Shown: positions 2,967-45,368 of the stretch, in pieces
Layout of the letters: each line of letters opens with the position of its first letter
Numbering within the stretch: position 1 is the stretch's first letter
Assembly: GCA_045116295.1 (NCBI GenBank)
Contig: JBGULQ010000005.1
Location: 41,349-105,348, forward strand
DNA: 64,000 nucleotides
Direction: 5' to 3'
Source: Alphaproteobacteria bacterium
GTDB taxonomy: Bacteria; Pseudomonadota; Alphaproteobacteria; RF32; CAG-239
The notes under the pieces: generated by a model
Databases searched by the model: none
Seen by the model: only the letters and a program-made list of their open reading frames with translations
What the model was told of the DNA's origin: nothing
Translations under genes and position numbers: made by a program

Positions 2967-3602
2967 TTATAATCTCTTATCCGAACTATGACAATAATCA
3001 GATATCGGACAGTTTTTACAATCCGGCCTCTGAGCTTTGCAAATATATCGACCGAACAAAACCAACCAATGATTAGCATACATCAAATATTTATCCGGCA
3101 AGACCTTCAATAAATCATTTTCTACATCAAGCGGAGTTTTCCCATCGCTGAAATCAAGCCGATGTGCAATTCTGAACACATGAGTATCAACTGCCATCGT
3201 TGGCTGATTATACCATACATTTCTTAACACATTTGCAGTTTTACGCCCAACACCTGCCAACGATTCCAAATCTTTTTGTGAACTTGGTACTTCACCGCCG
3301 AATTTTTCAACCAAACTCTGGCTCATACTCATAATGCTTTTAGCCTTGTTATTAAACAAACCTATGGTTTTTATATATTCTTTTAGTCCATCAACTCCCA
3401 AATCAAGCATTTTTTGCGGTGTATCTGCCACCTTAAACAATTCCTTTGTCGCCTTATTAACACCTTTATCAGTGCTTTGTGCCGACAGTATAATTGCCAC
3501 CAAAAGTGTATACGCATTTGTATACTCAAGCTCACTTTTCGGGGCCGGATTCGCATCAGCAAAAATCTGCATAATTTCCAAAATTTCAGATTTTTTTCTC
3601 AT
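2967..3602 (-). CDS. nth: endonuclease III (DNA glycosylase/AP lyase)
   Basis: An HhH-GPD fold and the C-terminal 4Fe-4S loop CKAQRPDCKNCPISDYC are present. The AGGAGGAG SD lies 7 nt before the ATG at 3602. Its ATGA overlaps the tsaD stop. Confidence 0.9.
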   Translation of the reverse strand: MRKKSEILEIMQIFADANPAPKSELEYTNAYTLLVAIILSAQSTDKGVNKATKELFKVADTPQKMLDLGVDGLKEYIKTIGLFNNKAKSIMSMSQSLVEKFGGEVPSSQKDLESLAGVGRKTANVLRNVWYNQPTMAVDTHVFRIAHRLDFSDGKTPLDVENDLLKVLPDKYLMYANHWLVLFGRYICKAQRPDCKNCPISDYCHSSDKRL

Positions 3603-4672
3603 GCTTTTACTCCTCCTGCTCCGGCAGCTTTTGGTGCATTTGCATCCAAAGGCCACCTTGGTCTTGGCTTAAAATCCAGGCCATCAACATATCCTTTTTG
3701 AAAACGCTCCAACCCAGCCCAAGCAATCATCACACCGTTATCCGTACAAAGTCTGACTGGTGGTGCCGCAAAAATCAACCCTTTATTGCTGGCCAATTCT
3801 TCAAGTTTTGCACGCAAATATAAATTTGCCGCAACGCCGCCGGCAACAACAACGTGCTTTCCATTAGGATAATTTTTCTTAAAATAATCAGCCGCTAAAA
3901 GCAATTTATCCAACAAACACTCACAAGCTGTTTTTTGGAAACACGCGCAAATATCCGCAACATCTTTTCGTGGTAAAACAGTTTCATCAATATCACCGTT
4001 TCCGTACGATTCGATAATTTTTCTTACTGCTGTTTTAAGCCCCGAAAAAGATAAATTCAAATCACCTGATCCGCGCAACGGATGTGGCAAACTAAAACGA
4101 TTTTCATCACCTATTGCCGCCATTTTTTCAATCATCGGACCACCCGGATACCCGAGTTTTAGCATTTTTGCTACTTTATCAAAAGCCTCACCGGCAGCAT
4201 CATCAATTGTTGTGCCAAGTCTTTCATAATCTCCGGCAGTTTTTACCACCAAAATTTGACAATGCCCACCTGATACCAACAGCAATAAATAAGGATATTC
4301 AACATCATTTGTCAGTCGTGAAACCAGCGCATGACCTTCTAAATGATTGACCGCAACAAACGGTTTATTTAATGCCAAAGACAACGCTTTTGCCGCCATT
4401 ACACCAACAACAACTCCGCCTATCAGCCCCGGTCCAGAAGCTGCTGCGACAGCATCAATATCTTTTGGTTTTATTTTTGCCCTATTAAACGCCTGTTCAA
4501 TAATATCATCTATATGATCAAGATGTGAACGCGCAGCAATTTCCGGCACAACCCCGCCAAAAACCTTGTGTTCTTCTTGCGACAACACAACATCTGATAA
4601 AATCTCTTTTTTATCATTCACTATTGCTGCTGCTGTTTCATCACAACTACTCTCAATACCTAAAACTATCAT
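3599..4672 (-). CDS. tsaD: tRNA N6-threonylcarbamoyladenosine synthase TsaD (Gcp/Kae1)
   Basis: N-terminus MIVLGIESSCDETAAAIV; metal-binding HxxGH motif (LEGHAL); about 357 aa. Confidence 0.95.
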   Translation of the reverse strand: MIVLGIESSCDETAAAIVNDKKEILSDVVLSQEEHKVFGGVVPEIAARSHLDHIDDIIEQAFNRAKIKPKDIDAVAAASGPGLIGGVVVGVMAAKALSLALNKPFVAVNHLEGHALVSRLTNDVEYPYLLLLVSGGHCQILVVKTAGDYERLGTTIDDAAGEAFDKVAKMLKLGYPGGPMIEKMAAIGDENRFSLPHPLRGSGDLNLSFSGLKTAVRKIIESYGNGDIDETVLPRKDVADICACFQKTACECLLDKLLLAADYFKKNYPNGKHVVVAGGVAANLYLRAKLEELASNKGLIFAAPPVRLCTDNGVMIAWAGLERFQKGYVDGLDFKPRPRWPLDANAPKAAGAGGVKA

Positions 4673-4751: not shown

Positions 4752-5711
4752 ATGGTAAAAAATAAATCGTCTTTTCTTGCCAAGACCGGCAAAATTTCTC
4801 TGTTTGTTTTTAGAACATTTGAAACAATTGTTTTTCTATCAGTTATCGGCTTAGCTATATTTATCTGGCAAAAACCTCAATATTTGCACAAACTGATAAA
4901 AACCGGCGACAACAATTTATCATCAATCAACGCTGCAAAAATTGATGAAATAAGCAACAAACTTGAAACTCTAACTCTCATCACCAAAAGTGACGCCGAA
5001 AAATCAGATTTATTGCAACAAAAATTCGAGCATTTTGATAAAGCAAAAGTAAATAGCGAAGAAATCATTTATCTCAACAATCAAATAAGTTCTCTCAACG
5101 AACAAATAAATTCCGTTCGTAACTCTACAAAAAAACTGTCGCAAACATCAAACAGTGGAGCTTTGCTCCTCACATCTGCAATGCTGATTCGCGACAATGT
5201 TTTACGCGGCATAGATTGCAAAAATGAATCTGAAGGTATGAAAATCTTAGCGCAAAACATTGATAATCTCACTCAAGATATTGATTTTGTGACCTCTCAC
5301 TGCAATCTGAATTTTGTTTCAAATAAAACTCTTGTTGCTAATTTTGATACTATTTATAAAAAAATTGAAAACAGCATGAAACCCGAAGAAGCACAAAACT
5401 GGAAGCAACGCCTTTCTGCAAAATTAGGAGAATATGTGCAAATTTCAAACCACAATCAACAACCTGATAACTCATATAATCCACTGCAACAACTACAGCC
5501 TATTAAAAGCCTCGTCGATAACGGCGACTTGTTAAAAGCAGCGCAACAACTATCTGCTCCAGAATATCAAAATATTATGACAGACAACGACATAATGAAC
5601 TGGGTCAATCAAGTTAAAAATCAAGCAGATTTTCATAAATCACTATCCAATATAATCAATGCATCATTATTAATAATGAAGGTAGAAGATGCCCAAAACA
5701 CAGCTGAATAA
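4752..5711 (+). CDS. membrane-anchored coiled-coil protein, HemX/alpha-Mic60-like (hypothesis)
   Basis: An AAGGA SD precedes the start. One N-terminal TM helix is followed by a long coiled-coil region. It diverges from tsaD, where alphaproteobacteria usually carry hemC-hemD-hemX(mic60). Confidence 0.5.
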   Translation: MVKNKSSFLAKTGKISLFVFRTFETIVFLSVIGLAIFIWQKPQYLHKLIKTGDNNLSSINAAKIDEISNKLETLTLITKSDAEKSDLLQQKFEHFDKAKVNSEEIIYLNNQISSLNEQINSVRNSTKKLSQTSNSGALLLTSAMLIRDNVLRGIDCKNESEGMKILAQNIDNLTQDIDFVTSHCNLNFVSNKTLVANFDTIYKKIENSMKPEEAQNWKQRLSAKLGEYVQISNHNQQPDNSYNPLQQLQPIKSLVDNGDLLKAAQQLSAPEYQNIMTDNDIMNWVNQVKNQADFHKSLSNIINASLLIMKVEDAQNTAE

Positions 5712-7089
5712 TATTTGGAATAAATATTACCAAAAAGCACCGGAAACACTTTTAAAAATATCAAAAATTAACCGTGTTGCCTGCGCGTTTAACAGTTGTA
5801 TAGATTCTGTTGTAAAATTATCCGGCAAAGAATTCGGAAAACTTTTTTTGCAACAAAAATCTTCATTAAAAGAATTAAGAAACATTGTTCATTATTCTGT
5901 AAATTCTCCTCTTGATATACTCCGCGGAATTTTTCGTTGCTTCACTAGCGGAATAGCTGAGGAATGGGTTGCAGATAAACCTGAAATGTTCGATTGGATG
6001 CTCAACAACTTAGGCACAAAAAAAATACAAGTAGGAGGTCAAGGCGGAATTATCGCAAACACCTTGTCCCTTACCGATATCAAACAAATAATTGTTCACA
6101 GTAACGCCTTGAGCAAGTTACAGGCAAGTATGTTCTTTGATCGCAAAAACTTACTGTCTTTTGATGCTAAAGGATCACTAAAACAAGCATCAAAAATTGA
6201 TCGTGATAAAATCTCATCAATTCACTGGATTGTTGAGTTTGATAAAGGTGATAAAATAACTCTGGAAGGACAAGAATTTATATGTCCTAAATCCAATCGT
6301 TTTATAATCACCTATGATCCTCCTTTGTTCAATTTTGTAATTGATAAAAATTTTATTGATTATACCAACAACAATAAATTTGATTATTTTATCCTCTCCG
6401 GATATCAAGCATTAAGCTCAAAAAATAACGCTCTCGCACACATTAAAAACAGTGTTAAAATTATTGATGATTGGAAAAAACAAAGTCCGCAAGCAATTGT
6501 TCATCTCGAAATCGCCTCAACTCAGGATAAAAAAGTTCTTAAAAATATTACACATTATATCATTCCAAACATTGACTCTATGGGAGTAAATGAGCGTGAA
6601 ACAATGGATGTTTTAGAAGCTCTAAACCAAAAAAGATTACTCGAAAAATGCAAACAAAATCCAACTTCATCAAACCTGTTTGATGCAATACTAAAAATAA
6701 AAACAAAACTTAAATGTCCGCGCATTCAACTGCATATGTTCGGACTATATGTTACAATACAAAACAAAAATTATCCTCTTTCTCCGACCAAGAACCGTAA
6801 CGGCATGATTTTAGCCGCAACAGCTGCTGCCAGCAAAGCATCACACGGACAACTCTCCCAACCTGATGATATTTTAAAATCATATGGTATGAGTGTATCC
6901 GATATTGGTATAAAAGAGCTGAAAAACCTTAGTTCTCATCTAAAAAAAGAAGAACTTTTATCAAAAGGAATTTGTGAATACAAAGGTTTTAATATTATAG
7001 CTGTTCCGACAATTTTAATTGATCAACCGAGAACATTGGTTGGCATGGGAGATACAATATCATCATTTTCCCTCATCGGTGCCTGTTGA
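5689..7089 (+). CDS. ADP-dependent sugar kinase family protein (ADP-GK/ADP-PFK, ribokinase-like superfamily)
   Basis: The protein aligns along its whole length to Pyrococcus ADP-glucokinase from memory. Shared motifs include GGQGGIIAN (vs GGQAGIMAN), IIVHSNALSKLQASMFFD (vs VIVHVPQLSRLQANLFLD), and the C-terminal catalytic motif TLVGMGDTISSFSLIG (vs TVGIGDTISSSAFIG). It overlaps the upstream ORF by 23 nt. Confidence 0.8.
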   Translation: MPKTQLNNIWNKYYQKAPETLLKISKINRVACAFNSCIDSVVKLSGKEFGKLFLQQKSSLKELRNIVHYSVNSPLDILRGIFRCFTSGIAEEWVADKPEMFDWMLNNLGTKKIQVGGQGGIIANTLSLTDIKQIIVHSNALSKLQASMFFDRKNLLSFDAKGSLKQASKIDRDKISSIHWIVEFDKGDKITLEGQEFICPKSNRFIITYDPPLFNFVIDKNFIDYTNNNKFDYFILSGYQALSSKNNALAHIKNSVKIIDDWKKQSPQAIVHLEIASTQDKKVLKNITHYIIPNIDSMGVNERETMDVLEALNQKRLLEKCKQNPTSSNLFDAILKIKTKLKCPRIQLHMFGLYVTIQNKNYPLSPTKNRNGMILAATAAASKASHGQLSQPDDILKSYGMSVSDIGIKELKNLSSHLKKEELLSKGICEYKGFNIIAVPTILIDQPRTLVGMGDTISSFSLIGAC

Positions 7090-11725: not shown

Positions 11726-11953
11726 TACGATAGTCAAACAACAGCGAGAACTGTGCTAATTGATTTGAGCACAAACGATTTTTTAATGTAATCCATAATG
11801 ATATCATTTTTAATAAATTAATAATTTTTATTTATCATCAAGATAGCATAAAAATATAACCAAGTCAAATATTTTGTCAAATTTTGTAATTTAATCTTGC
11901 ATAAAAAATCAAACGGTTTATAAATATTTTCATTGATAAAAAGGAATTTTAAT

Positions 11954-13294
11954 ATGGACAATAAAACCATTTATGCCCTATCAACCGTTTTTGGAAAATC
12001 AGGCATTGCCACCGTTCGCATTTCCGGAAAAAACGCTCTTGAGGTCTTAAAAAAACTTTCTGATATTGACACAAAAAACGTTATTCCGAGACATGCTTAT
12101 TTTTCAAAACTCCACGGAGTTGATAATATCCCGCTTGACCATGCTGTTGTCATATATTTTCAAGCTCCGTATTCTTTTACCGGAGAAGATATTGTTGAAA
12201 TAAGCTCGCACGGCTCAAAAGCTGTAATATCATCTCTTTTATCCAACTTATCACAAATTGACGGTTTTCGCCTTGCTGAAGCCGGAGAATTTTCAAAACG
12301 CGCATTTTATAATAACAAAATTGATTTGACTGAGGCTGAAGGATTGGCCGACCTGATTGATGCAGAAACATCTGAACAGCAAAAATATGCTTTACGCCAA
12401 ATGGATGGTGAACTCAAAAATTTATACGATGGCTGGCGCTCAGAACTTGTTAATGTTTTATCTCATCTTGAGGCTTATATTGATTTTCCTGATGAAGAAT
12501 TGCCCGAAAACATTGTTTTAAACCTTGAAAACACTGTATTTAAAGTCAAAGAATCAATCAAAACACATCTTTCACAAAGCAATTATGGTGAAAGACTAAA
12601 AGACGGGTTTAGAGTTGTAATTATCGGTGAACCGAATTCCGGAAAATCGAGTTTGCTTAATACACTTGCCAACCGTGAGGCTGTAATTGTATCTGACATC
12701 GCCGGCACAACCCGCGATGCTATAGATATTCATATGGATATAAATGGTTATCCGGTTGTATTTACTGACACAGCCGGACTGAGAAATACAACAGAAACTA
12801 TTGAGAAAAAAGGCATAGAAATAGCTTATGAAAAAGCTAAAGATGCAGATCTTATACTTGCAATGGTTGATGGAAAAAATCCTAATTTCGACCAATTTAA
12901 TGATATTGCTTCAACCTGCTCCAAAAAAATTATATATGTTATAAATAAGTCTGATTTGCTTAATGAGAAACAGTGTTCTGAATACAAAAAATCCGGATTC
13001 ATTGTTATTTCAGCCAAACATAAAAACGGAATTGAAGATCTTATTTCCGCTATTAATGAACGTATATCTTCAGAGTTTACTCAAAATTCTTCTGCTTTAA
13101 TTACAAGACAGCGTTATAGAGAGGTTTTGAACGATGTATTTAAAAATCTTAATGACTTTAATCTTAATAAATCCATAGAGTTAGCCGCCGAAGATATTCG
13201 TCTTGCTGCCAGAAGCATTGGCAAAATCACCGGACATATTGAGGTTGATGAAATTCTTGATAAGATTTTCGGGAGTTTTTGTATTGGAAAATAA
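11954..13294 (+). CDS. mnmE: tRNA modification GTPase MnmE
   Basis: An AAGGA SD precedes the start. The G-domain motif GEPNSGKSSL and the C-terminal CIGK motif are present. 446 aa from the ATG at 11954. Confidence 0.95.
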   Translation: MDNKTIYALSTVFGKSGIATVRISGKNALEVLKKLSDIDTKNVIPRHAYFSKLHGVDNIPLDHAVVIYFQAPYSFTGEDIVEISSHGSKAVISSLLSNLSQIDGFRLAEAGEFSKRAFYNNKIDLTEAEGLADLIDAETSEQQKYALRQMDGELKNLYDGWRSELVNVLSHLEAYIDFPDEELPENIVLNLENTVFKVKESIKTHLSQSNYGERLKDGFRVVIIGEPNSGKSSLLNTLANREAVIVSDIAGTTRDAIDIHMDINGYPVVFTDTAGLRNTTETIEKKGIEIAYEKAKDADLILAMVDGKNPNFDQFNDIASTCSKKIIYVINKSDLLNEKQCSEYKKSGFIVISAKHKNGIEDLISAINERISSEFTQNSSALITRQRYREVLNDVFKNLNDFNLNKSIELAAEDIRLAARSIGKITGHIEVDEILDKIFGSFCIGK

Positions 13295-13302
13295 CACTGT
13301 AT

Positions 13303-13875
13303 TTAAAGCCTGTAAATATATACATTCTTAAACAAAAGCTTTTTCCCGGTCTTAATTTCCTCTACAAGTGGCAAATTTGGAATCTTAAATGTGTTGGAAA
13401 AAATAATCTGAGACTTTTTATTGTCATGCAGTACTTTTTCTCCAAATTTTTTCATTAACGGATCCATCAAAAAACAAGTGATAATATCGGCTTCTCCAAA
13501 GTCACAATCAAACATATTATTACAAATAAATTTGATATTTTTAAGTTTTCTTGCCCTCATGCGACATATAAAACACGCAAATTTATTCCACTCGATTCCG
13601 ACAAAGTTATGATTCTTATATTTCTTAGCAAGGCTCAACAACAATGTTCCTGTACCGCAACCCGGATCAAGCACAGTCATTGGATTTTTGCTGCTATTGA
13701 GTATTGATCCGACTTTTTCAATAATAATTTTCTTTTCTTTTCCAAAACTTGGAATATATGGCGGACATTCACGATATTCCTTGCTGATAAACAGTTTGAT
13801 AATAACAACCCACATCCATAAAACAGCGGCCATAATTATCAAATTTATCACCGTAGCAATATAAAAAGTAAACAT
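13303..13875 (-). CDS. class I SAM-dependent methyltransferase with N-terminal TM anchor
   Basis: Motif I reads VLDPGCGTGTLL. One N-terminal TM helix is present. A GGAGA SD lies 6 nt before the ATG at 13875. The track's longer start is at 13920. Confidence 0.7.
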   Translation of the reverse strand: MFTFYIATVINLIIMAAVLWMWVVIIKLFISKEYRECPPYIPSFGKEKKIIIEKVGSILNSSKNPMTVLDPGCGTGTLLLSLAKKYKNHNFVGIEWNKFACFICRMRARKLKNIKFICNNMFDCDFGEADIITCFLMDPLMKKFGEKVLHDNKKSQIIFSNTFKIPNLPLVEEIKTGKKLLFKNVYIYRL

Positions 13876-13998
13876 ATTTTTCTCCATATAGTTGTCTATG
13901 TTCCATAATAAACGCCGCATCTATAAAAAAAGGTTAATTTTTACCTTGCCAAACGTGCAAAACTATAATAAACCAATGTAATTCATTGAGGTGTATAA

Positions 13999-15837
13999 AT
14001 GCAGAAACATTATGATGTCATAGTAGTCGGCGGCGGACATGCCGGCTGTGAAGCATGCGCAGCATCGGCTCGCATGGGAGCTAAGACTCTGCTTATTACA
14101 CACAAAAAGTCTACCATTGGTGAAATGTCATGCAACCCTGCAATCGGCGGACTTGGTAAGGGGCATTTTGTACGTGAAATAGACGCTCTTGATGGCTTAA
14201 TGGGGCGCGTTATTGATAAAGCCGGAATACAGTTCAGAATGCTTAATATGTCAAAAGGACCTGCAGTCCGCGGACCGCGTGCTCAAGCAGATCGTGATTT
14301 GTATCGCAAATATATGCTTGAGGCACTTAACGCGCAACAAAATCTTGAAATAATGGAAGCAGCAGTTGAGGGACTGTTGTTTAACAATCATAATGTCAAT
14401 GGCGTAAAACTTTCTGATGGTACAGAAATATTGTCTTCATCTGTTATCTTAACTACCGGAACTTTTTTAAATGGTGTTATGTTTATTGGTCACGAAACTA
14501 CTGTTGGCGGAAGAGTTAACGATGTTTCATGTGCTGGTATAACACCGTATTTAAAGTCTATGGGTATTAAAGTTGGACGCTTAAAAACTGGTACGCCTGC
14601 TCGCTTGAACGCTGATTCAATAAACTGGGATATACTCGATGTTCAGTCAGGAGACAATCCGCCTCAACCATTTTCATATTTAACCAAAGAAATCACAAAT
14701 CCCCAGATAAACTGCTATATAACTCACACCAACGAAAAAACTCATAAGATAATTCGTGATAATTTTGAAAAATGCGCCCTTTTTTCCGGATTAATTAAAG
14801 GCGTCGGTCCAAGATATTGTCCCAGTATTGAGGATAAACTGGTAAAATTTGCAGATCGAACCAGTCACCAAATTTTCCTTGAACCCGAAGGTTTAAATAG
14901 CAAAGTTGTTTATCCGAATGGACTTTCAACCTCGCTTCCTGCAGATGTTCAGGATGAATTTTTGCATACCATAAAAGGACTGGAAAATGTAGAAATAATA
15001 CGATATGCCTATGCAATTGAATATGATTATGTCGATCCGCAAGAACTTGATCATTGCCTGCAGGTTAAAAAAATACCAAATCTTTATCTTGCCGGCCAAA
15101 TCAATGGAACAACCGGTTATGAAGAAGCCGCAGCACAGGGAATATTGGCGGGTATAAACGCCGCTCTCAACGCCACCGACAAAGGCAATGAGTTTACTAT
15201 TGATCGCAGTCAGGCATATATTGGTGTTATGGTTGATGATCTCATAACCAAGGGTGTTGACGAGCCATATCGTATGTTTACATCGCGTTCTGAATATCGC
15301 TTATATCTTCGTGCTGACAATGCTGATGCCCGACTAACGGAAGCCGGCTATAAAATTGGTTGTGTTGGTCAATATCGTTATGATGTATTCAAAACCAAAC
15401 AAGAACAAATTTCAAGGCTCAGAGCAATGGTTGACGAATTATCTATACGACCTCTTGATATGGAAAAATACGGCATCAAAAAAGATTCGCGCCGCACGGC
15501 TTTCAATTTAATGTCTTATGAAGATGTTTCACGTGAAACAATTTTAAAGATATGGCCACAACTGGCTGATTTTAAACCCGAAATTTACGAAGCTGTCGAA
15601 ATAGAGGCAAGATATTCCGGCTACATAAAAAGACAAATGGCAGATATTGAAGTATTTAAAAAAGATGAACAGCTAAAAATTCGTGATGATATAGACTATA
15701 GCAAAATAGGCGGATTATCCAACGAAATGGTGATAAAACTTAGTCGAGTTCGCCCCTCAACTATTGGTGAAGCATCGCGAATTTCCGGAGTAACACCAGC
15801 GGCAATAATGGCAATATTGGGATACATGAAAAAATGA
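13999..15837 (+). CDS. mnmG: tRNA uridine 5-carboxymethylaminomethyl modification enzyme MnmG (GidA)
   Basis: The FAD-binding N-terminus [13 protein letters not shown] is present. 612 aa. Confidence 0.97.
15525..15540. promoter_or_regulatory. parS centromere site TGTTTCACGTGAAACA (inside mnmG coding)
   Basis: This is a perfect 16-bp match to the canonical parS palindrome. It encodes DVSRET. Confidence 0.85.
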
Positions 15838-16484
15838 ATAATTTAGCAGAGCAAATTATTGACAACAAAGGATACCCGAGCAAAGAGCAAGCGCTTAAAA
15901 TATGGGAGGGCGGAATAGTTTACCGCCTTTCGCGCCCATACGGCTTTACATTTGAAAACGAATATCGCTTTCACACCATGGGCGTTGCTTCCGCTGCGGA
16001 AAAAATCGCTCGCTATATTCCTTCCATGGATCCCGAAAAAGCCTTTGTTCTCGGATTATTGCATGATTATGGCAAAAGAATTAACGAGCGCATAGAAGGG
16101 AGATTTCATGGGCAAGAAGGTTATGAGCAAATGCTTAAAGCCGGTTATCCTGATGTTGCAAAAGTTTGCTTAACTCATACATTTGCAAAACCGGATTTTC
16201 CTGACGAAGAATATTCATATCCGCAGGAATGGAAAGATTGGGCTCGTAATATACTAAAGAATATAACATATGACGATTATGACTATTTAATTTGTCTTTG
16301 CGATAAATTTTTTGAAGGGCTTTCAATAGTTTCAATTTCAAATCGTGTAAAGGGTATTGTTAACCGCTATCGCCTCAGTAAGATAGAAGAAAATTACCTG
16401 CTTGCAGAGTCAATGCAGCTTAAAGATTATTTTGATAAAAAGACCGGTCAAGATATATATAAAATTTTGGATATAGAGGACTAA
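15834..16484 (+). CDS. HD-domain phosphohydrolase (small, 216 aa)
   Basis: The H ... HD ... H ... D metal-ligand pattern is present (HTMGV, LLHDYGK). The start ATGA overlaps the mnmG stop. Confidence 0.8.
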
Positions 16485-16485
16485 A

Positions 16486-17316
16486 ATGCAACTGTTCAGC
16501 TATCATACTCATACAAATTTTTCAGACGGCAAAAACAGTATTAAAGAAATGATTGAGCAAGCCGTTTCTTTAGGTTGGAAAGAGCTTGGAATCAGCGATC
16601 ATTTAATAGTCCATAAAAATATTCCTAACAGTCAATCATGGCCAAGATGGAAAAAAGAGCCAAATATATATTACTGGGACTTTAATAGTATATATGAAAA
16701 ATTTGCTCGTCACATTGAAGAAATACGCAAAATATCTGCAAATTTCCCCATAAAGGTGAGGGTAGGTGCCGAGGTCGATTTTTTCACTTACGATGGTTGG
16801 CTTGATGAATTTACAAAACTCCGTGAAAAGCTGGACTTTGACTATTGTATTTCCGGCAATCATTATTTATTCTTAGATGATGCCGGTGAAAATATCATTG
16901 AATTCAAAGATTCTGAACTCCTACCATTAGATAAACAAATAAATATGATTAGGCAACATTTCAAAATTATATGTCGAGCCGCCAGCAGTGGTTTGTTCGA
17001 TTTTATTGCTCATATAGATTATATCAGAAAAATGCCAATTTATAACACAACCGACTTTAGTAACGAAAAAGCAGAATTAATAAAAACACTTGCCGCACAT
17101 AATGTTGCTACCGAAATCAGCACTAAAGGTCTCAGAAAAAGTGATTATTTTTATCCTGACAGCGATATGCTGAAAAACGCAATTAAAAACAATGTCAAAA
17201 TAGTTATAAGTGATGATGCGCACCGCACAAACGAACTAGGATATAGATTTGACTATGCTGAAGATACTCTTCGCCAATACGATTGCACTTCGCGATGGAA
17301 TTTTGTTGAGAAATAG
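16486..17316 (+). CDS. PHP-family phosphoesterase, HisJ/HisK-type histidinol-phosphatase-like
   Basis: Motifs line up with B. subtilis HisJ from memory: YHTHTNFSDG, RVGAEVDF, IAHIDY, STKGLRK and ISDDAHR. It starts 1 nt after the HD gene stop. Confidence 0.8.
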   Translation: MQLFSYHTHTNFSDGKNSIKEMIEQAVSLGWKELGISDHLIVHKNIPNSQSWPRWKKEPNIYYWDFNSIYEKFARHIEEIRKISANFPIKVRVGAEVDFFTYDGWLDEFTKLREKLDFDYCISGNHYLFLDDAGENIIEFKDSELLPLDKQINMIRQHFKIICRAASSGLFDFIAHIDYIRKMPIYNTTDFSNEKAELIKTLAAHNVATEISTKGLRKSDYFYPDSDMLKNAIKNNVKIVISDDAHRTNELGYRFDYAEDTLRQYDCTSRWNFVEK

Positions 17317-17483
17317 ATTCCGCTTTGTTTTGTATGTTACTGTTTTCTTTTAATAATTTATTGAGTTGTTAATTTTTTGATTCATTGTGTTTTGGTAATG
17401 GCTTGAATTAGTGCCATATTTTTATGTGTTTATAAGTCGTTTTTTTATTTTTAAAAAATGATTTTAAAATATATAAAAAGAGT

Positions 17484-18116
17484 ATGAATAATTTTTGCGA
17501 AAAATATAATGTTTCACGTGAAACATATTTAAAACTTGACCGCTACTGCCAATCATTAACAGAGTGGCAAGAGAAATTTAACCTCATAAGCAAAAACACA
17601 TTAAATGATATTTGGAATCGCCATATAGAAGATTCGGCGCAAATTTTTGAGCACATTCCATCAAAAGCAAAAAAACTTCTCGATATTGGAAGTGGAGCAG
17701 GATTTCCCGGAATGGTGATAGCTATTATAGCATCTGAAAAAACACCGTATTTAAATATTACTCTCGTTGACAGTATACATAAAAAAACACTGTATTTAAA
17801 CCACGTCAAAGAACTAAACAACCTTTCAAATGTTGAAATTTTAAACGATAGGGCTGAAAACATCACTGGCTCTAAGTTTGATGTTATAACTGCACGTGCC
17901 GTAACTGCTCTTACGGAACTGCTAAAATATTCCCACCCGCTGCTCTCAAAAAACGGCGTGTGTATATTCCTCAAAGGTCGCAGTTATAAAGATGAAATAT
18001 TTACAGCAAGACAAAACTGGAATTTTGACTGCAAGGAAATCAACAGCCAAACATCAGACGAAGGAAAGATTTTAATTATCAGCAATATTGCAAAAAAAGG
18101 AGAAAAAAATGCCTAG
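17484..18116 (+). CDS. rsmG: 16S rRNA (guanine527-N7)-methyltransferase RsmG (GidB)
   Basis: The SAM motif LDIGSGAGFPG is present. 210 aa. It follows mnmG as in the gidAB cluster. Confidence 0.9.
   Translation: MNNFCEKYNVSRETYLKLDRYCQSLTEWQEKFNLISKNTLNDIWNRHIEDSAQIFEHIPSKAKKLLDIGSGAGFPGMVIAIIASEKTPYLNITLVDSIHKKTLYLNHVKELNNLSNVEILNDRAENITGSKFDVITARAVTALTELLKYSHPLLSKNGVCIFLKGRSYKDEIFTARQNWNFDCKEINSQTSDEGKILIISNIAKKGEKNA
17510..17525. promoter_or_regulatory. parS centromere site TGTTTCACGTGAAACA (inside the rsmG 5' end)
   Basis: This is a perfect 16-bp parS. It encodes NVSRET at rsmG codons 9-14. Confidence 0.85.
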
Positions 18117-18888
18117 AATAATTGCGATTGCCAACCGCAAAGGCGGAGTTGGAAAAACCACAACCACGGTCAATGTTGCCACAGCAATGGCTGCCACAGG
18201 CAAAAAGGTATTGGTCATTGATCTTGATCCGCAGTGCAACGCCACTACGTCGCTTGGGTTTGATAAACACAACAATGTTGTATCTTCATACGATGTTATT
18301 ATCGGAGAACGCAGTTTAAACGAGGCTGTTGTCTGGACTGAAATTCCAAATTTTTCTCTCATTCCATCGTCACCCGATCTCGCCGGAGCAGAAGTTGAAC
18401 TTATTGACAGAGAACGTCGTGAATTTTTTCTCCGCGATGCACTGAACAAAACCATTGGTAATTACGATTACGTTCTCATCGATTGTCCGCCGTCGCTTAG
18501 CTTAGTAACAATCAATGCTCTTGTTGCCGCAGATGCGGTTGTTGTCCCTCTGCAGTGTGAATATCTTGCACTTGAAGGCATGAGTGATTTAATCAGCAAC
18601 ATTAATTTAATTAAAAAACATTTTAACCCGAAACTTGAGTTACAAGGGGTTGTGCTAACAATGTATGATGGTCGCAATAATTTGACGCAGATGGTTGAAG
18701 AAGATGTTCGCGGATATTTCGGCAAAAAAGTATACAAGACCGTTATTCCGCGGAATGTCCGTGTTTCTGAGGCTCCATCACACGGAAAACCTGTATTATT
18801 ATATGATTTTAAATGTCCTGGCTCACAAGCATACATAAGTTTGGCCGGAGAAATGTTAAAAAGAGAAAAGGAATTATTGGCATGCTAG
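18109..18888 (+). CDS. parA: chromosome partitioning ATPase ParA
   Basis: A GGAGA SD precedes the start. The deviant Walker A reads ANRKGGVGKTTT. Confidence 0.95.
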   Translation: MPRIIAIANRKGGVGKTTTTVNVATAMAATGKKVLVIDLDPQCNATTSLGFDKHNNVVSSYDVIIGERSLNEAVVWTEIPNFSLIPSSPDLAGAEVELIDRERREFFLRDALNKTIGNYDYVLIDCPPSLSLVTINALVAADAVVVPLQCEYLALEGMSDLISNINLIKKHFNPKLELQGVVLTMYDGRNNLTQMVEEDVRGYFGKKVYKTVIPRNVRVSEAPSHGKPVLLYDFKCPGSQAYISLAGEMLKREKELLAC

Positions 18889-19778
18889 AAGATAACAAAA
18901 GAAAAAGTTTAGGTCGTGGGCTTGGTGCTTTACTTGGTGAAGATGCATTTTTACTGACAGAAGAAACACCTATAGTTGAAAATACACCAAAAGACGGCAT
19001 TAAAAAGGTTTCTGTAAAACTTTTATATGCAAGCAAATATCAACCTCGCTCTGAATTTAATCAAGAAGCACTTGATGCCTTGACGGTATCAATAAAAGAA
19101 AAAGGTGTCTTGCAACCGCTGTTGGTTCGTGCAAAAAACAACGGAAAATACGAAATCATCGCCGGTGAGCGACGTTTTAGAGCGGCATGCCAAGCCGGAC
19201 TGACAGAAATTCCGGTTATAGTAAAAGAAATGGCTGACAAGGAAGTTCTTGAAGTTGCGTTGGTTGAAAATCTTCTGCGTGAAAATTTGTCTGCCATTGA
19301 AGAGGCCGAAGGACTGCAACGCCTAATTAACGAATTTTCTCATACTCAGGAAGCTCTTTCTAACGTGATTGGAAAATCACGTAGTTATATAGCTAACACT
19401 TTGCGCTTACTTTCGCTTCCATCTTCAGTTCAGCAGATGATTCGTGATAACAAATTAACCGCAGGTCATGCCCGTCCGTTGATTGGTTTGGAAAATGCCG
19501 AAGCCATAGCCGAAAAAATTGTTGCTAAAGGGCTAAGCGTACGTGAAGTTGAGCAGCTTGTTCAAAAGGGCAAAGAAGGCAAAACTAAAGTCACCAAAAA
19601 AACAAATTCAGATACTGCAGATATTGAAAAAATGCTCCGTCGTGATTTAGGACTGAAAGTAAAAATCTCAACAGCATCAAACGGCAGTGGTAAAATTGTT
19701 CTTTCTTATGCAGATTTAGCAGAACTCGACCGCATATTGGATATACTGAATAACAGCAAAAAAAGTCAAAATGCTTAA
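18882..19778 (+). CDS. parB: chromosome partitioning protein ParB
   Basis: An ATGCTAG overlap joins it to the parA stop. The ParB box GERRFRA and an HTH are present. Confidence 0.95.
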   Translation: MLEDNKRKSLGRGLGALLGEDAFLLTEETPIVENTPKDGIKKVSVKLLYASKYQPRSEFNQEALDALTVSIKEKGVLQPLLVRAKNNGKYEIIAGERRFRAACQAGLTEIPVIVKEMADKEVLEVALVENLLRENLSAIEEAEGLQRLINEFSHTQEALSNVIGKSRSYIANTLRLLSLPSSVQQMIRDNKLTAGHARPLIGLENAEAIAEKIVAKGLSVREVEQLVQKGKEGKTKVTKKTNSDTADIEKMLRRDLGLKVKISTASNGSGKIVLSYADLAELDRILDILNNSKKSQNA

Positions 19779-19854: not shown

Positions 19855-20874
19855 ATGTTATTCTTAAAAAAGGTTTTTCTCGGCTTAGCTGCAATATGTT
19901 TGATAATTATTGGCGGTAGCGGAACTCAAAGCACAAATCTTTTGACGCAAGGTGGCGGAATAGTAGGTATAGCTGCCGGATTGGTCGCCTTGTACATTTT
20001 TGGAAAACTTGTATGGAAAGCCATGGGGTGCCTTCCGTCTATATTGTTGCTGGCGGCATTTTGCGTGTTTGTTCTCTACGCAATAGGTGCCTTTAATGGT
20101 GGTGTCGAAAATGTTGTTCCTAACCTACAAAGATTTATCGGTATAGGAAACTCTTCTTCTGCCGAAGATGACCATGAAATAATACAACTTGAAGATGAAG
20201 ATCCTGATGTAAGCATAAGTGAAAATTTTGAAGAAATAAACATTAACAACACCCAATCTGATGAAGCCAAGCAAACCAAACAACCTGAGCTGGAAACAAA
20301 TCAAAACAGCAACGGAATAACCGAATTAATAAAAGGATTTTTTGCCGGAAACAAATCCGAAGCCAGTGATAGCTTTAATCCTAAAGATTATCCCATGATT
20401 TACGGTCAAGTTGCAGTTGTCAGCGGTGATACCATTGTTCTAAACGGCAGATATGTGCGTCTATATGGCATAGATGCCCCGGAAATAAACCAAAAATGCG
20501 CTAACTCACAAGGGAAAAAATATGCTTGTGGCATTGAGGCTGCCAATTGGCTAAAAGAGTGGATACAAGACTATGAGGTTGAATGCAACGTTCTCAAGCA
20601 AAACAATCGCGGAAACATGGTGGCTGTTTGTTCCCTTGGTGAGTATGATATAGGAGCAGCGCTTGTGGCATCAGGCTGGGCAATAACCTTACCTAACAAC
20701 GACGTATACATTCCATATGAACAACAAGCACAAAAAATGCGCCGAGGAATGTGGCAAGGGAGTTTTTATAAACCTTGGGATTGGGTAAAAATGCAGTCTG
20801 TAACTCCAAAACTCAAAATTATCAAACGTAAGAAAAAGTCTAAAAAAACAAACCGTTTATGGGATTTTTTGTAA
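19855..20874 (+). CDS. membrane-anchored thermonuclease (SNase-like) family protein
   Basis: Three N-terminal TM helices and an acidic linker precede the SNase core VSGDTIVLNGRYVRLYGIDAPE. The C-terminal tail is basic. Confidence 0.8.
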   Translation: MLFLKKVFLGLAAICLIIIGGSGTQSTNLLTQGGGIVGIAAGLVALYIFGKLVWKAMGCLPSILLLAAFCVFVLYAIGAFNGGVENVVPNLQRFIGIGNSSSAEDDHEIIQLEDEDPDVSISENFEEININNTQSDEAKQTKQPELETNQNSNGITELIKGFFAGNKSEASDSFNPKDYPMIYGQVAVVSGDTIVLNGRYVRLYGIDAPEINQKCANSQGKKYACGIEAANWLKEWIQDYEVECNVLKQNNRGNMVAVCSLGEYDIGAALVASGWAITLPNNDVYIPYEQQAQKMRRGMWQGSFYKPWDWVKMQSVTPKLKIIKRKKKSKKTNRLWDFL

Positions 20875-21333
20875 ATGAATGATATAGAATTTATATGCGC
20901 TACCGAACAAGATACTGCAGATGTCGGTAAAAAACTTGCCGGCATTGCTCGCAAGGGCGACGTGTTTGCCCTTTTTGGCACACTGGGAATGGGCAAAAGT
21001 GTATTATCACGCGCTTTTGTTCAATCACTTACTGGTGCTGAAGAAGTTCCAAGTCCGACCTTTACTTTGGTACAAACGTACGAAACAGCAAACTTTGATA
21101 TATACCACTTCGATCTCTACCGCATAAAGTCACCGGAAGAAATATTTGAACTTGGTGCTGAAGAAGCCATTTATGAAGGCGTTTGCCTGATTGAATGGCC
21201 GGAAAAGATGGGAGCATATTTGCCTAACAATGCATTTCATGTTCGCATAACTCCGTTTGCCAGCGGTAGAAAAATAACCATAGAAACCAAAGATGTTAAC
21301 AAACAAAAGAGGCTTGAAACTCTTGTCGATTGA
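20875..21333 (+). CDS. tsaE: tRNA threonylcarbamoyladenosine biosynthesis protein TsaE (YjeE)
   Basis: P-loop GTLGMGKS; about 150 aa; typical YjeE size. Confidence 0.85.
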   Translation: MNDIEFICATEQDTADVGKKLAGIARKGDVFALFGTLGMGKSVLSRAFVQSLTGAEEVPSPTFTLVQTYETANFDIYHFDLYRIKSPEEIFELGAEEAIYEGVCLIEWPEKMGAYLPNNAFHVRITPFASGRKITIETKDVNKQKRLETLVD

Positions 21334-21748
21334 GAACATTCATACCACAGCGGTTGCTATTGATGGGACTGCTGTTTTGTTAATAGGAGCTCCGGGGAGT
21401 GGAAAATCAGATTTAGCTCTGCGCTTAATTATGAACAAAAGCGCAGTACTGATTGCCGACGACCGTGCGGATATTTCTGTATCTAACAATTCCTTAAAAG
21501 TATCCTGTCCAAAAAGCATAAGAGGATTGTTGGAAGTTAGGGGAGTTGGTATTTGTAAATTTCCATATTTGACATCTGCAAAAGTAAAATTGGCTGTTAA
21601 ACTGGTTCCGTCGTTATCAGATGTGGAACGTATACCCGAGCCAAAGACGGCAAATTTTTTAGGTATAGAAATTCCGCAAATAGAATTATACCCGTTTGAG
21701 GCATCTGCTCCCGATAAAATACTCGCAGCTTGTTACCAAAATCGATAG
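21293..21748 (+). CDS. hprK: HPr kinase/phosphorylase, short alphaproteobacterial form (C-terminal domain only)
   Basis: The Walker A GAPGSGKS and the LIADD motif are present. 151 aa. It overlaps tsaE by 41 nt if the ATG at 21293 is used. Confidence 0.8.
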   Translation: MLTNKRGLKLLSIENIHTTAVAIDGTAVLLIGAPGSGKSDLALRLIMNKSAVLIADDRADISVSNNSLKVSCPKSIRGLLEVRGVGICKFPYLTSAKVKLAVKLVPSLSDVERIPEPKTANFLGIEIPQIELYPFEASAPDKILAACYQNR

Positions 21749-34371: not shown

Positions 34372-34470
34372 TGCTATGGAGGGCATCGGGTCAAGCGTTC
34401 GCCAACCCGGTCAGGTTCGGAAGAAAGCAGCCGTAACGAACCAGCCTGAGGTCGGTGTTCCTCCGCCTTT
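34372..34470 (+). ncRNA. ffs: signal recognition particle RNA (4.5S, small SRP RNA)
   Basis: The conserved domain IV GGUCAGGUUCGGAAGAAAGCAGCC matches the GUCAGGUCCGGAAGGAAGCAGC consensus and carries the GGAA tetraloop. It lies immediately upstream of dnaX, as in the ffs-dnaX-ybaB-recR cluster. The ends are approximate. Confidence 0.7.
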
Positions 34471-43919: not shown

Positions 43920-45368
43920 TTATGCCTCTAAAGACCGACGTAAAACCTCAACGCTCTCAGCAACGCTCGAATCTTCTTTTATAAGTTCCTCAACCTTGCG
44001 TACCGCATGCATAACCGTTGTGTGATCGCGGTCAAATTTACGACCGATTTCCGGCAATGAACGCAGAGTTAAAAGCTTGGCCAAATACATGGCGATTTGA
44101 CGAGGCCTTGCAACCGTTCTTGCTCTACGGGAAGACTGCATCTCTTTGACCGATATGTTAAAGTGTTCTGCAACTTTTTTCTGAATTTCATCAATAGTTG
44201 TTCTGCGGTCATAAGAACGCAACATGTCTTTCAAAACATCTTGTGTGTTCTCCAGAGTTATTTCTTTGCCCGGCAATAATTGTGTATGGGCAATAATACG
44301 GCGCAAGGCTCCTTCCAACTCACGAATGTTTGACGTAATCTTTTGAGCCAAAAATTCAGCAACCTTTTGTGGCAATTCGCAATTCAGCTGTTTAGCTTTT
44401 GCCTGCAAAATACCAATTCTCAAGTCAAAATCTGTCGGATGAATATCTGCAACCAAACCGCAACCCAAACGAGAGCGCAGGCGGGTTTCGATTCCCTCTA
44501 AATCAGATGGCGATTTGTCTGCTGAAATAATTATCTGACGACCTTCTTCAATCAATGAATTGAAGGTATAGAAAAACTCCTCTTGTGTGGTATCTTTTCC
44601 ACCCATAAATTGAACATCATCAACCATCAGTACATCAACGGATCTGAATTGTTCCTTAAAAGCGGCAGTATCTTTGTAGCGCAAAGCTCTAACAAATTTA
44701 TACATAAATTTTTCGGCAGAAAGATAAACAATGTTTTTATTCGGATTTCTTTGCTTAATTCTCCAAGCAATTGCGTGCATAAGGTGGGTTTTACCCAAAC
44801 CTACACCGGAGTATAAAAACAGCGGATTAAACGGAATGTCATCGGATTCTGCCACCTTTTTTGCAGCAGCATAAGCAAATTCATTGGTCTTGCCGACAAC
44901 AAAATTTTCAAAAGTATACTGAGGGTTGAGCGGCACGGACAGAGACTGGTTAGCGTCAGAAACATATCCTGCTTCCGAAGAAATATTGCCGATACCGGAT
45001 TGATATATATTTTGCGGTGCCGGACTTGATGAAATTTTCTTTAATAAAGATCTGCAAGTAGAGTTATGAACGCCGGTTGCAATACCCTCATCTGCAGCTT
45101 GAACGATAAAATTAATGCTTTTAATGTTTGGATTCTTTTTCCCCCAAATTTTATGGATTCTGTCAGAATAATTTGTGATCACCCAGTTGCGCATAAAACG
45201 TGTCGGCACACTTATATTCATGACACCGCTGGAAAAAGAGCTGACACTCAATGGCTTTAGCCAACTGTCAAAAGCTTTTTCTCCGACTTCTTGTTTTAAT
45301 TGTGAGCAAATTTGTCCCCATTCGTTTTGGACAGCTTCGTTATTGTTTGTAGCTGCTTCGCTAACCAT
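43920..45368 (-). CDS. dnaA: chromosomal replication initiator DnaA
   Basis: An AAA+ module with GVGLGKTHL and a C-terminal DNA-binding domain are present. 482 aa. Confidence 0.97.
   Translation of the reverse strand: MVSEAATNNNEAVQNEWGQICSQLKQEVGEKAFDSWLKPLSVSSFSSGVMNISVPTRFMRNWVITNYSDRIHKIWGKKNPNIKSINFIVQAADEGIATGVHNSTCRSLLKKISSSPAPQNIYQSGIGNISSEAGYVSDANQSLSVPLNPQYTFENFVVGKTNEFAYAAAKKVAESDDIPFNPLFLYSGVGLGKTHLMHAIAWRIKQRNPNKNIVYLSAEKFMYKFVRALRYKDTAAFKEQFRSVDVLMVDDVQFMGGKDTTQEEFFYTFNSLIEEGRQIIISADKSPSDLEGIETRLRSRLGCGLVADIHPTDFDLRIGILQAKAKQLNCELPQKVAEFLAQKITSNIRELEGALRRIIAHTQLLPGKEITLENTQDVLKDMLRSYDRRTTIDEIQKKVAEHFNISVKEMQSSRRARTVARPRQIAMYLAKLLTLRSLPEIGRKFDRDHTTVMHAVRKVEELIKEDSSVAESVEVLRRSLEA

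Follow-up and report, generated by a model that had tools for sequence, protein, structure and literature searches.

An ordered array of HD and PHP phosphohydrolase genes coupled to mnmG in a gut lineage of Alphaproteobacteria

Based on the sequence, structural and comparative evidence presented here, we describe an ordered, differentially lost array of phosphohydrolase genes that lies directly behind mnmG (gidA) in a gut alphaproteobacterial lineage. The stretch of DNA that was analysed (the window) comprises 64,000 nucleotides of an alphaproteobacterial genome (assembly GCA_045116295.1, contig JBGULQ010000005.1, positions 41,349 to 105,348) and carries what would be a minimal version of the array: an HD-domain phosphohydrolase gene of clade HD-1 (15834..16484, + strand, 216 aa) followed by a HisJ-like PHP phosphoesterase gene of clade PHP-A (16486..17316, + strand, 276 aa), both placed 3' of mnmG (13999..15837, + strand; 612 aa in the map of open reading frames, ORFs), which anchors the unit. 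Both enzymes represent new subfamilies, but their superfamilies are familiar; what is novel is their arrangement, an ordered array that is tied to mnmG and has been differentially lost. The explanation that we favour, and to which we give about an even chance, is that the products are small-molecule phosphohydrolases made constitutively with MnmG and acting independently of each other, with diverged specificities, and that the tie to mnmG is one of expression. According to this scheme, mnmG, HD and PHP would be transcribed constitutively as a single, translationally coupled unit near the origin, and the HD and PHP products would be soluble, catalytically competent metallo-phosphohydrolases belonging to lineage-specific paralogue families. 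The HD enzyme would most likely be a binuclear-metal hydrolase attacking the phosphoanhydride or phosphomonoester of a nucleotide or nucleotide-derived cofactor, and the PHP enzyme a HisJ-branch phosphomonoesterase with a trinuclear metal centre, its substrate being some small phosphorylated metabolite; the two would share expression with mnmG, not chemistry, and would need no obligate two-step pairing. The array itself would have arisen by tandem duplication within the gut lineage, with differential loss since.

The coupling is visible in the window at the nucleotide level. The stop codon of mnmG (TGA) shares bases with the start codon of the HD gene (ATGA), the HD stop codon (TAA) is followed after 1 nt by the PHP start, and a Shine-Dalgarno-like GAGGA lies inside the 3' end of the HD gene, 5 nt before the PHP ATG. 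The ORF map and the sequence agree exactly with the gene coordinates, the overlap and the 1-nt gap given in a preliminary description of this locus. For comparison, loci were collected with an HD profile scan restricted to one genome per GTDB species, which yielded 79 loci onto which eight window proteins were mapped by tblastn. Among 30 related loci, whose MnmG is 70-79% identical to the window copy, the start of the first array gene and the mnmG stop codon are 20 nt or less apart in 27, and 13 of those 27 have the same -4 overlap as the window. Genes within the array are separated by a median of 0-2 nt, whereas the gap before rsmG (gidB) spans 65-248 nt (median 134, 27 loci); in the window it is an AT-rich spacer of 167 nt (17317..17483). 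Moreover, mnmG, HD and PHP abut in L001 (loci are cited by their L numbers) although rsmG-parAB is found about 8.6 kb downstream. The tight spacing between mnmG and the array, the spacer before rsmG and the layout of L001 therefore define the unit as mnmG plus the array, not as mnmG-rsmG-parAB; the coupling to mnmG proposed in the preliminary description is thus conserved, while the linkage that it drew to rsmG and parAB does not hold. We conclude that the translational coupling of the array to mnmG is real and conserved, and that mnmG, HD and PHP are presumably co-transcribed. A candidate sigma-70-like promoter for this unit (13940..13969, + strand; TTTACC-18-TATAAT, 10 of 12 consensus positions) is the best match in the region and ends 30 nt 5' of the mnmG start; its call relies solely on the consensus, and the total of promoter-like sites is near the shuffle expectation. 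No terminator-like hairpin was detected in the 17317-17483 spacer, and an Rfam scan of the whole window returned the signal recognition particle RNA alone (34375-34470), with no hit near the locus. The GC content of the HD and PHP genes equals that of their flanks, and the GC profile gives no sign of recent transfer of these genes.

Homology searches with HD and with PHP hit some of the same contigs, and diverged PHP homologues proved to have a matching gene neighbourhood. An HD gene lies directly 3' of mnmG in 26 species-level metagenome-assembled genomes (MAGs). The array-bearing MAGs (for example GCA_017470585.1, JAQWBS01, CALXTU01 and CALXWA01) come from the guts of humans, mice, ruminants and other animals, and their records bear the titles uncultured Alphaproteobacteria, 'Azospirillum sp.' or Azospirillaceae; this lineage is probably the GTDB order RF32. 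In 29 distinct loci the slot after mnmG holds 0-3 HD and 0-2 PHP paralogues, for a total of 1-5 genes. In seven loci, the window included, a single HD precedes a single PHP, the two genes lying 1-72 nt apart. The other arrangements are HD-PHP-PHP (L004, L005, L006, L008, L028), HD-HD-PHP, HD-HD-HD-PHP (L014, L024), PHP-HD-HD-HD (L021), two or three HD genes without PHP (L015, L020, L023) and PHP only (L085). In this last case (L085/L086, 7001-7840), a lone PHP-A gene, without any HD, overlaps the end of mnmG by 4 nt, and dnaE is located 3' of parB. One HD copy of L027 is split and decaying. When considering species, PHP is absent from the locus in five and doubled in several. Neighbour-joining trees resolve approximately four HD clades and two PHP clades, and the order of these clades along the chromosome is largely fixed: mnmG-[HD2]-[HD3]-HD1-[HD4]-[PHP-B]-[PHP-A]-rsmG. 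In the tree, the alphaproteobacterial HDs all group together in a single clade, with the Firmicute copies as its sister, and the duplications therefore arose inside the lineage. The HD/PHP slot is thus a lineage-wide feature, ancestral in these gut Alphaproteobacteria, and not a one-off insertion. The word 'inserted', used in the preliminary description, is apt relative to other bacteria; within the lineage it is not, the slot being ancestral and its GC content native. The same description had left room for a widespread lineage feature of known function: the feature is indeed widespread, but the only function that it has been given comes from automated labelling as HisJ family. Its picture of a defined HD-PHP pair is contradicted by the HD-only, PHP-only and 2-5-paralogue arrays, whereas its statement that the module had not been described stands, since our literature search met no mention of it; nothing usable was found on such a module or on the metabolism of this gut lineage.

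Some arrays include further genes or fused forms. Divergent MurA-like enolpyruvyl transferases are encoded inside the arrays of L009 (6680-8104, 474 aa) and L010 (3853-5304, 483 aa). Their identification as ordinary murA was rejected because they score below every MurA cut-off (270-282 versus 392.7 for TIGR01072), and they are probably not housekeeping murA genes. The array of L010 (MAG JAQWBS01) opens with a Nudix gene (3241-3810) and also contains a 441-aa HD::HD fusion (5317-6642); a second Nudix-HD pair is found elsewhere in JAQWBS01, adjoining tuf (L018, 5344-6633). Such HD::HD fusions recur (P0241, P0242), a hint that neighbouring HD paralogues may assemble into hetero-oligomers. An apparent fusion of the MnmG C-terminus to HD (P0206) is an artefact: frameshifts in the Logan contig break mnmG into four ORFs.

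HD and PHP are real genes because they have hundreds of homologues, confident structural models and invariant metal ligands. The domain assignments of the preliminary description were both recovered with Pfam: the HD protein matches PF01966 (E 8e-10; 39.5 bits versus a cut-off of 22) and the PHP protein PF02811 (E 6.5e-19; 69.3 bits versus 26.4). The HD protein also passes the HDIG model TIGR00277 (28.8 versus 27.6). Its putative metal ligands (H47, H77-D78, H92, H115 and D157) are invariant in the 46 full-length HDs of the arrays (48 rows including the L027 fragments), while position 82, beside these ligands, is clade-specific. The AlphaFold model is all-helical and confident (predicted local distance difference test, pLDDT, 94.3). 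A Foldseek comparison with solved structures retrieved no close relative: HDOD, YqeK, PgpH and HD-GYP proteins all have template modelling (TM) scores of at most 0.48 and E values above 1e-3, and the likeness to PgpH, HD-GYP and small alarmone hydrolases is weak. HDOD domains usually have degenerate catalytic residues. The HD protein does exceed the HDOD cut-off (PF08668, 25.9 versus 22.9), yet over model positions 98-133 of 196 alone; with this partial match, a best fold match, 3hc1, at TM 0.42 (E 4e-3), and intact catalytic residues, an HDOD identity was discarded.

By sequence, the nearest families are the HD domains of DVU_1551-family NTP transferases, NadD-HD and YqeK. For the HD core, the first two (NF045665, PRK07152) rank highest among the NCBIfam models (E 3e-8) and suggest a nucleotide-handling HD domain; the window protein differs from them in having no nucleotidyltransferase domain, and its score stays far under the cut-off (33 versus 315). 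YqeK, the symmetrical Ap4A hydrolase (8jja, 8wmy, 2ogi), shares with the window HD a length of about 200 aa, a stand-alone architecture and the H...HDYxK...H...H...D pattern, and is the best named sequence match in the PDB, but with an E value of 0.006 over 40 residues. The HD protein was not accepted as a YqeK: it scores 16.4 versus 70.15 on TIGR00488, the folds of 8wmy and 2ogi match with TM scores of at most 0.48, and its context is mnmG, not nadD-yqeK. The HD family is small (of 1.84 billion representatives, 147 clusters reach E <=1e-30) and, outside the lineage, occurs chiefly as stand-alone genes of gut Clostridia; clustering the neighbours of 49 Firmicute relatives revealed no conserved partner. 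Among 20 multidomain relatives, the fusion partners are GNAT (nine cases), NUDIX (three), NT5C, DHH-DHHA2, an AAA_33 kinase, peptidase S51, GDSL, SUKH, AMP-binding and a second HD, with no signalling or nuclease partner in this set; Nudix genes also lie directly 5' of HD genes in L010 and L018. The NUDIX, NT5C, DHH-DHHA2 and AAA_33 partners point to the phosphates of small-molecule nucleotides or cofactors rather than to nucleic-acid ends or second messengers.

The PHP protein contains the four motifs quoted in the preliminary description (YHTHTNFSDG, RVGAEVDF, STKGLRK and SDDAH) and, when aligned, the complete metal-binding His/Asp set on which that description depended, with all nine ligands (H7, H9, D14, H39, E96, H126, H176, D244 and H246) invariant in 29 array PHPs and in a 38-sequence alignment. 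The AlphaFold model is again confident (pLDDT 95.9). The enzyme is of HisJ type, as had been proposed, at the level of fold and subfamily. Its family profile retrieves the histidinol-phosphate phosphatase (HolPase) of T. thermophilus (2yxo, TTHA0331; E 5e-20) and Listeria HisK (3dcp; E 3e-16), and the best folds for the model are 2yxo (TM 0.74, 22% identity), 3dcp (TM 0.70) and L. lactis HisK (4gyf, TM 0.68), HolPases outranking YcdX and the PHP domains of PolX. The window PHP has in common with these HolPases a distorted (beta/alpha)7 PHP fold, the nine-residue trinuclear set, a similar length, the GLR and SD(D)AH motifs and the broad HisJ family model. It is unlike them in being linked to mnmG, in having no his-gene context and in occurring in 0-2 copies per locus from two deep clades.

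These likenesses make it conceivable, though in our estimation rather unlikely, that PHP is the histidinol-phosphate phosphatase of the lineage (HisJ/HisK type), replacing HisN and having HD as an unrelated neighbour. As the preliminary description stated for Alphaproteobacteria in general, HisN is indeed the enzyme used for histidinol phosphate in most alphaproteobacterial orders (PMC5516325). The window PHP passes the subfamily-level model TIGR01856 (hisJ_fam) by a small margin (94.5 versus 90.2), its full ligand set and best folds are those of HolPases, and its relatives carry automated histidinol-phosphatase labels in their source records. However, the HisJ equivalog NF005996 (57.7 versus 133) and the subfamily model NF005596/PRK07328 (124.2 versus 202) are both missed, PHP-B copies fall below the TIGR01856 cut-off as well (74.4 and 86.0), and identity to the solved HolPases is just 16-22%. 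Ghodge and colleagues are said to have defined the HolPase substrate-recognition residues in 2013 on the L. lactis enzyme HPP. In PHP-A, five residues beside the ligands (N125, H158, Y179, R181 and K214) are invariant and differ from PHP-B; both solved HolPases examined (2yxo, 3dcp) carry V/L, Y, L, K/Q and A, respectively, at these positions. Neither PHP clade is universal, given the species with no PHP or two at the locus, and the genes sit in an expanding array of hydrolases. No his gene was seen in the window or within the +/-10 kb flanks of the relative loci labelled with Pfam. A homology search with a PHP-B copy recovered almost solely the same alphaproteobacterial clade and no informative outgroup. 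For HD and PHP alike, the clades share the catalytic core but differ in residues close to it, and the paralogues have therefore probably diverged in specificity; from the evidence on both families, we infer that HD acts on a nucleotide or nucleotide-derived cofactor and PHP on a small phosphorylated metabolite.

The explanation that we favour also has the two enzymes working separately. The opposite proposal would make HD and PHP the two obligatory, successive steps of a pathway that starts from one substrate, leading for example from a polyphosphorylated or cyclic nucleotide to a nucleoside monophosphate and then to the nucleoside. Both enzymes are phosphoesterases, and the seven loci with a single HD closely followed by a single PHP would suit such a pathway; we nevertheless find it improbable. 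Arrays lacking PHP (L015, L020, L023, L010 and L027) or HD (L085) occur, none of the 20 multidomain relatives is an HD-PHP fusion, and the Firmicute HD relatives have no PHP neighbour. Since HD-only and PHP-only arrays exist, the two are not obligate partners, and we infer that they act independently.

It is equally hard to credit that HD and PHP work with MnmE-MnmG on tRNA U34, either by freeing an amine or amino-alcohol nucleophile or by recycling a nucleotide cofactor or by-product. This idea draws on the stop-start overlap or near-abutment with mnmG, kept in 27 of 30 loci although MnmG identity is only 70-79%, and on L001, where mnmG, HD and PHP have stayed joined while rsmG-parAB moved off; it is also known that HisJ-type enzymes dephosphorylate an amino-alcohol phosphate. 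Yet the known chemistry of MnmEG, which involves GTP, FAD, NADH, methylene-tetrahydrofolate and glycine or ammonium, proceeds without phosphoester hydrolysis, a content that ranges from one PHP to three HDs plus PHP is a poor fit to a fixed pathway step, and the Firmicute HD relatives are not beside mnmG and have no conserved neighbours. A direct role of HD and PHP in tRNA modification is thus unlikely. Its most specific form, in which a HisJ-like phosphatase would free the amino-alcohol or amine used by MnmEG at the wobble uridine U34 and the paralogues would provide different side chains, strikes us as very improbable. Least credible of all is a defence, counter-defence or signalling-nucleotide-degrading locus that diversifies under conflict (acting, for instance, on toxin-made or immune-signal nucleotides): the tandem paralogues have diversified with clade-specific residues beside their ligands, the HD fold has some weak likeness to PgpH, HD-GYP and small alarmone hydrolases, and one HD relative is fused to a SUKH/SMI1 immunity-type domain, but PADLOC gives HD weak Cas3-HD motif matches only (E 4e-4, 35 residues) and PHP none, there are no genes of mobile elements, sensors or effectors, the locus keeps a fixed place on the chromosome and a native GC content, and the paralogues fall into old clades that are orthologous between species, with no rapid turnover.

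Several points weigh against our explanation of constitutive, independent phosphohydrolases tied to mnmG by expression. The argument for the HD substrate from fusion partners is indirect, and the commonest partner, GNAT, indicates no particular substrate. The marginal pass of the HisJ-family model leaves a place for a plain role of PHP in histidine biosynthesis. Spacing is the only basis for co-transcription of mnmG, HD and PHP, and the sample of loci, drawn by an HD-based search, would have missed any relatives that have no array and under-samples PHP-only loci. Finally, the coupling is more persistent than a merely permissive site predicts, and there may be a functional tie to MnmEG.

The surroundings of the array are otherwise those of the canonical mnmE-mnmG-rsmG-parA-parB cluster known from E. 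coli (gidA-gidB) and Caulobacter, which the flanking genes of the window match in order and orientation; the window lineage departs from it in the 1-5 phosphohydrolase genes interposed and coupled to mnmG, with rsmG beyond a spacer. Upstream, mnmE (trmE; 11933..13294, + strand, 453 aa) was placed from the ORF map and the comparison with relatives. Downstream, rsmG (17484..18116, + strand, 210 aa) is outside the coupled unit and is followed by parA (18088..18888, + strand) and parB (18813..19778, + strand). The mnmG orthologues carry the Pfam domains GIDA, GIDA_C_1st and SAM_GIDA_C, and the rsmG orthologues GidB. Between mnmE and mnmG, a divergently oriented gene (13303..13920, - strand) encodes a class-I S-adenosylmethionine-dependent methyltransferase of 205 aa with an N-terminal transmembrane helix and no specific family match in Pfam or NCBIfam; its position is kept in the nearest relatives (L001-L008, L084, L087, L088) and it is absent from more distant ones. 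Directly 3' of parB, a 339-aa protein (19855-20874, + strand) combines N-terminal membrane segments with a C-terminal staphylococcal-nuclease domain (PF00565, E 1e-10), and this position is kept in L004, L087 and L088. From their translations, gyrB, polA, dnaX, recR, recF, dnaN and dnaA (43920-45368, - strand) were recognized between 26356 and 45368, and a matching gyrB-to-dnaA synteny, with Pfam labels, is found in L004; because these genes share the 64-kb window with the array, the locus is taken to be origin-proximal. Two other genes merit mention. A 466-aa protein (5689-7089, + strand) matches the ADP-specific phosphofructokinase/glucokinase family over its full length (PF04587, E 2e-72); this family is chiefly archaeal and eukaryotic, and such a kinase is therefore unusual for an alphaproteobacterium. 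Adjoining tsaE, a 151-aa protein (21293-21748, + strand) consists of the C-terminal domain of HPr kinase alone (PF07475, E 1e-17), a reduction that is common among Alphaproteobacteria.

The array by itself reveals no new mechanism, and its importance would need a link to MnmEG chemistry; if a role at U34 were true, it would represent a new branch of the xm5U pathway. Should the explanation favoured here be correct, it would define a small uncharacterised HD subfamily as well as two HisJ-like PHP clades for which the automated label 'histidinol-phosphatase' may be an over-annotation, a possibility that is therefore relevant to predictions of auxotrophy from gut metagenomes. Because its ordered paralogues have been differentially lost, the slot behind mnmG would also offer a clean natural experiment and a tractable set of paralogues for the assignment of substrates.

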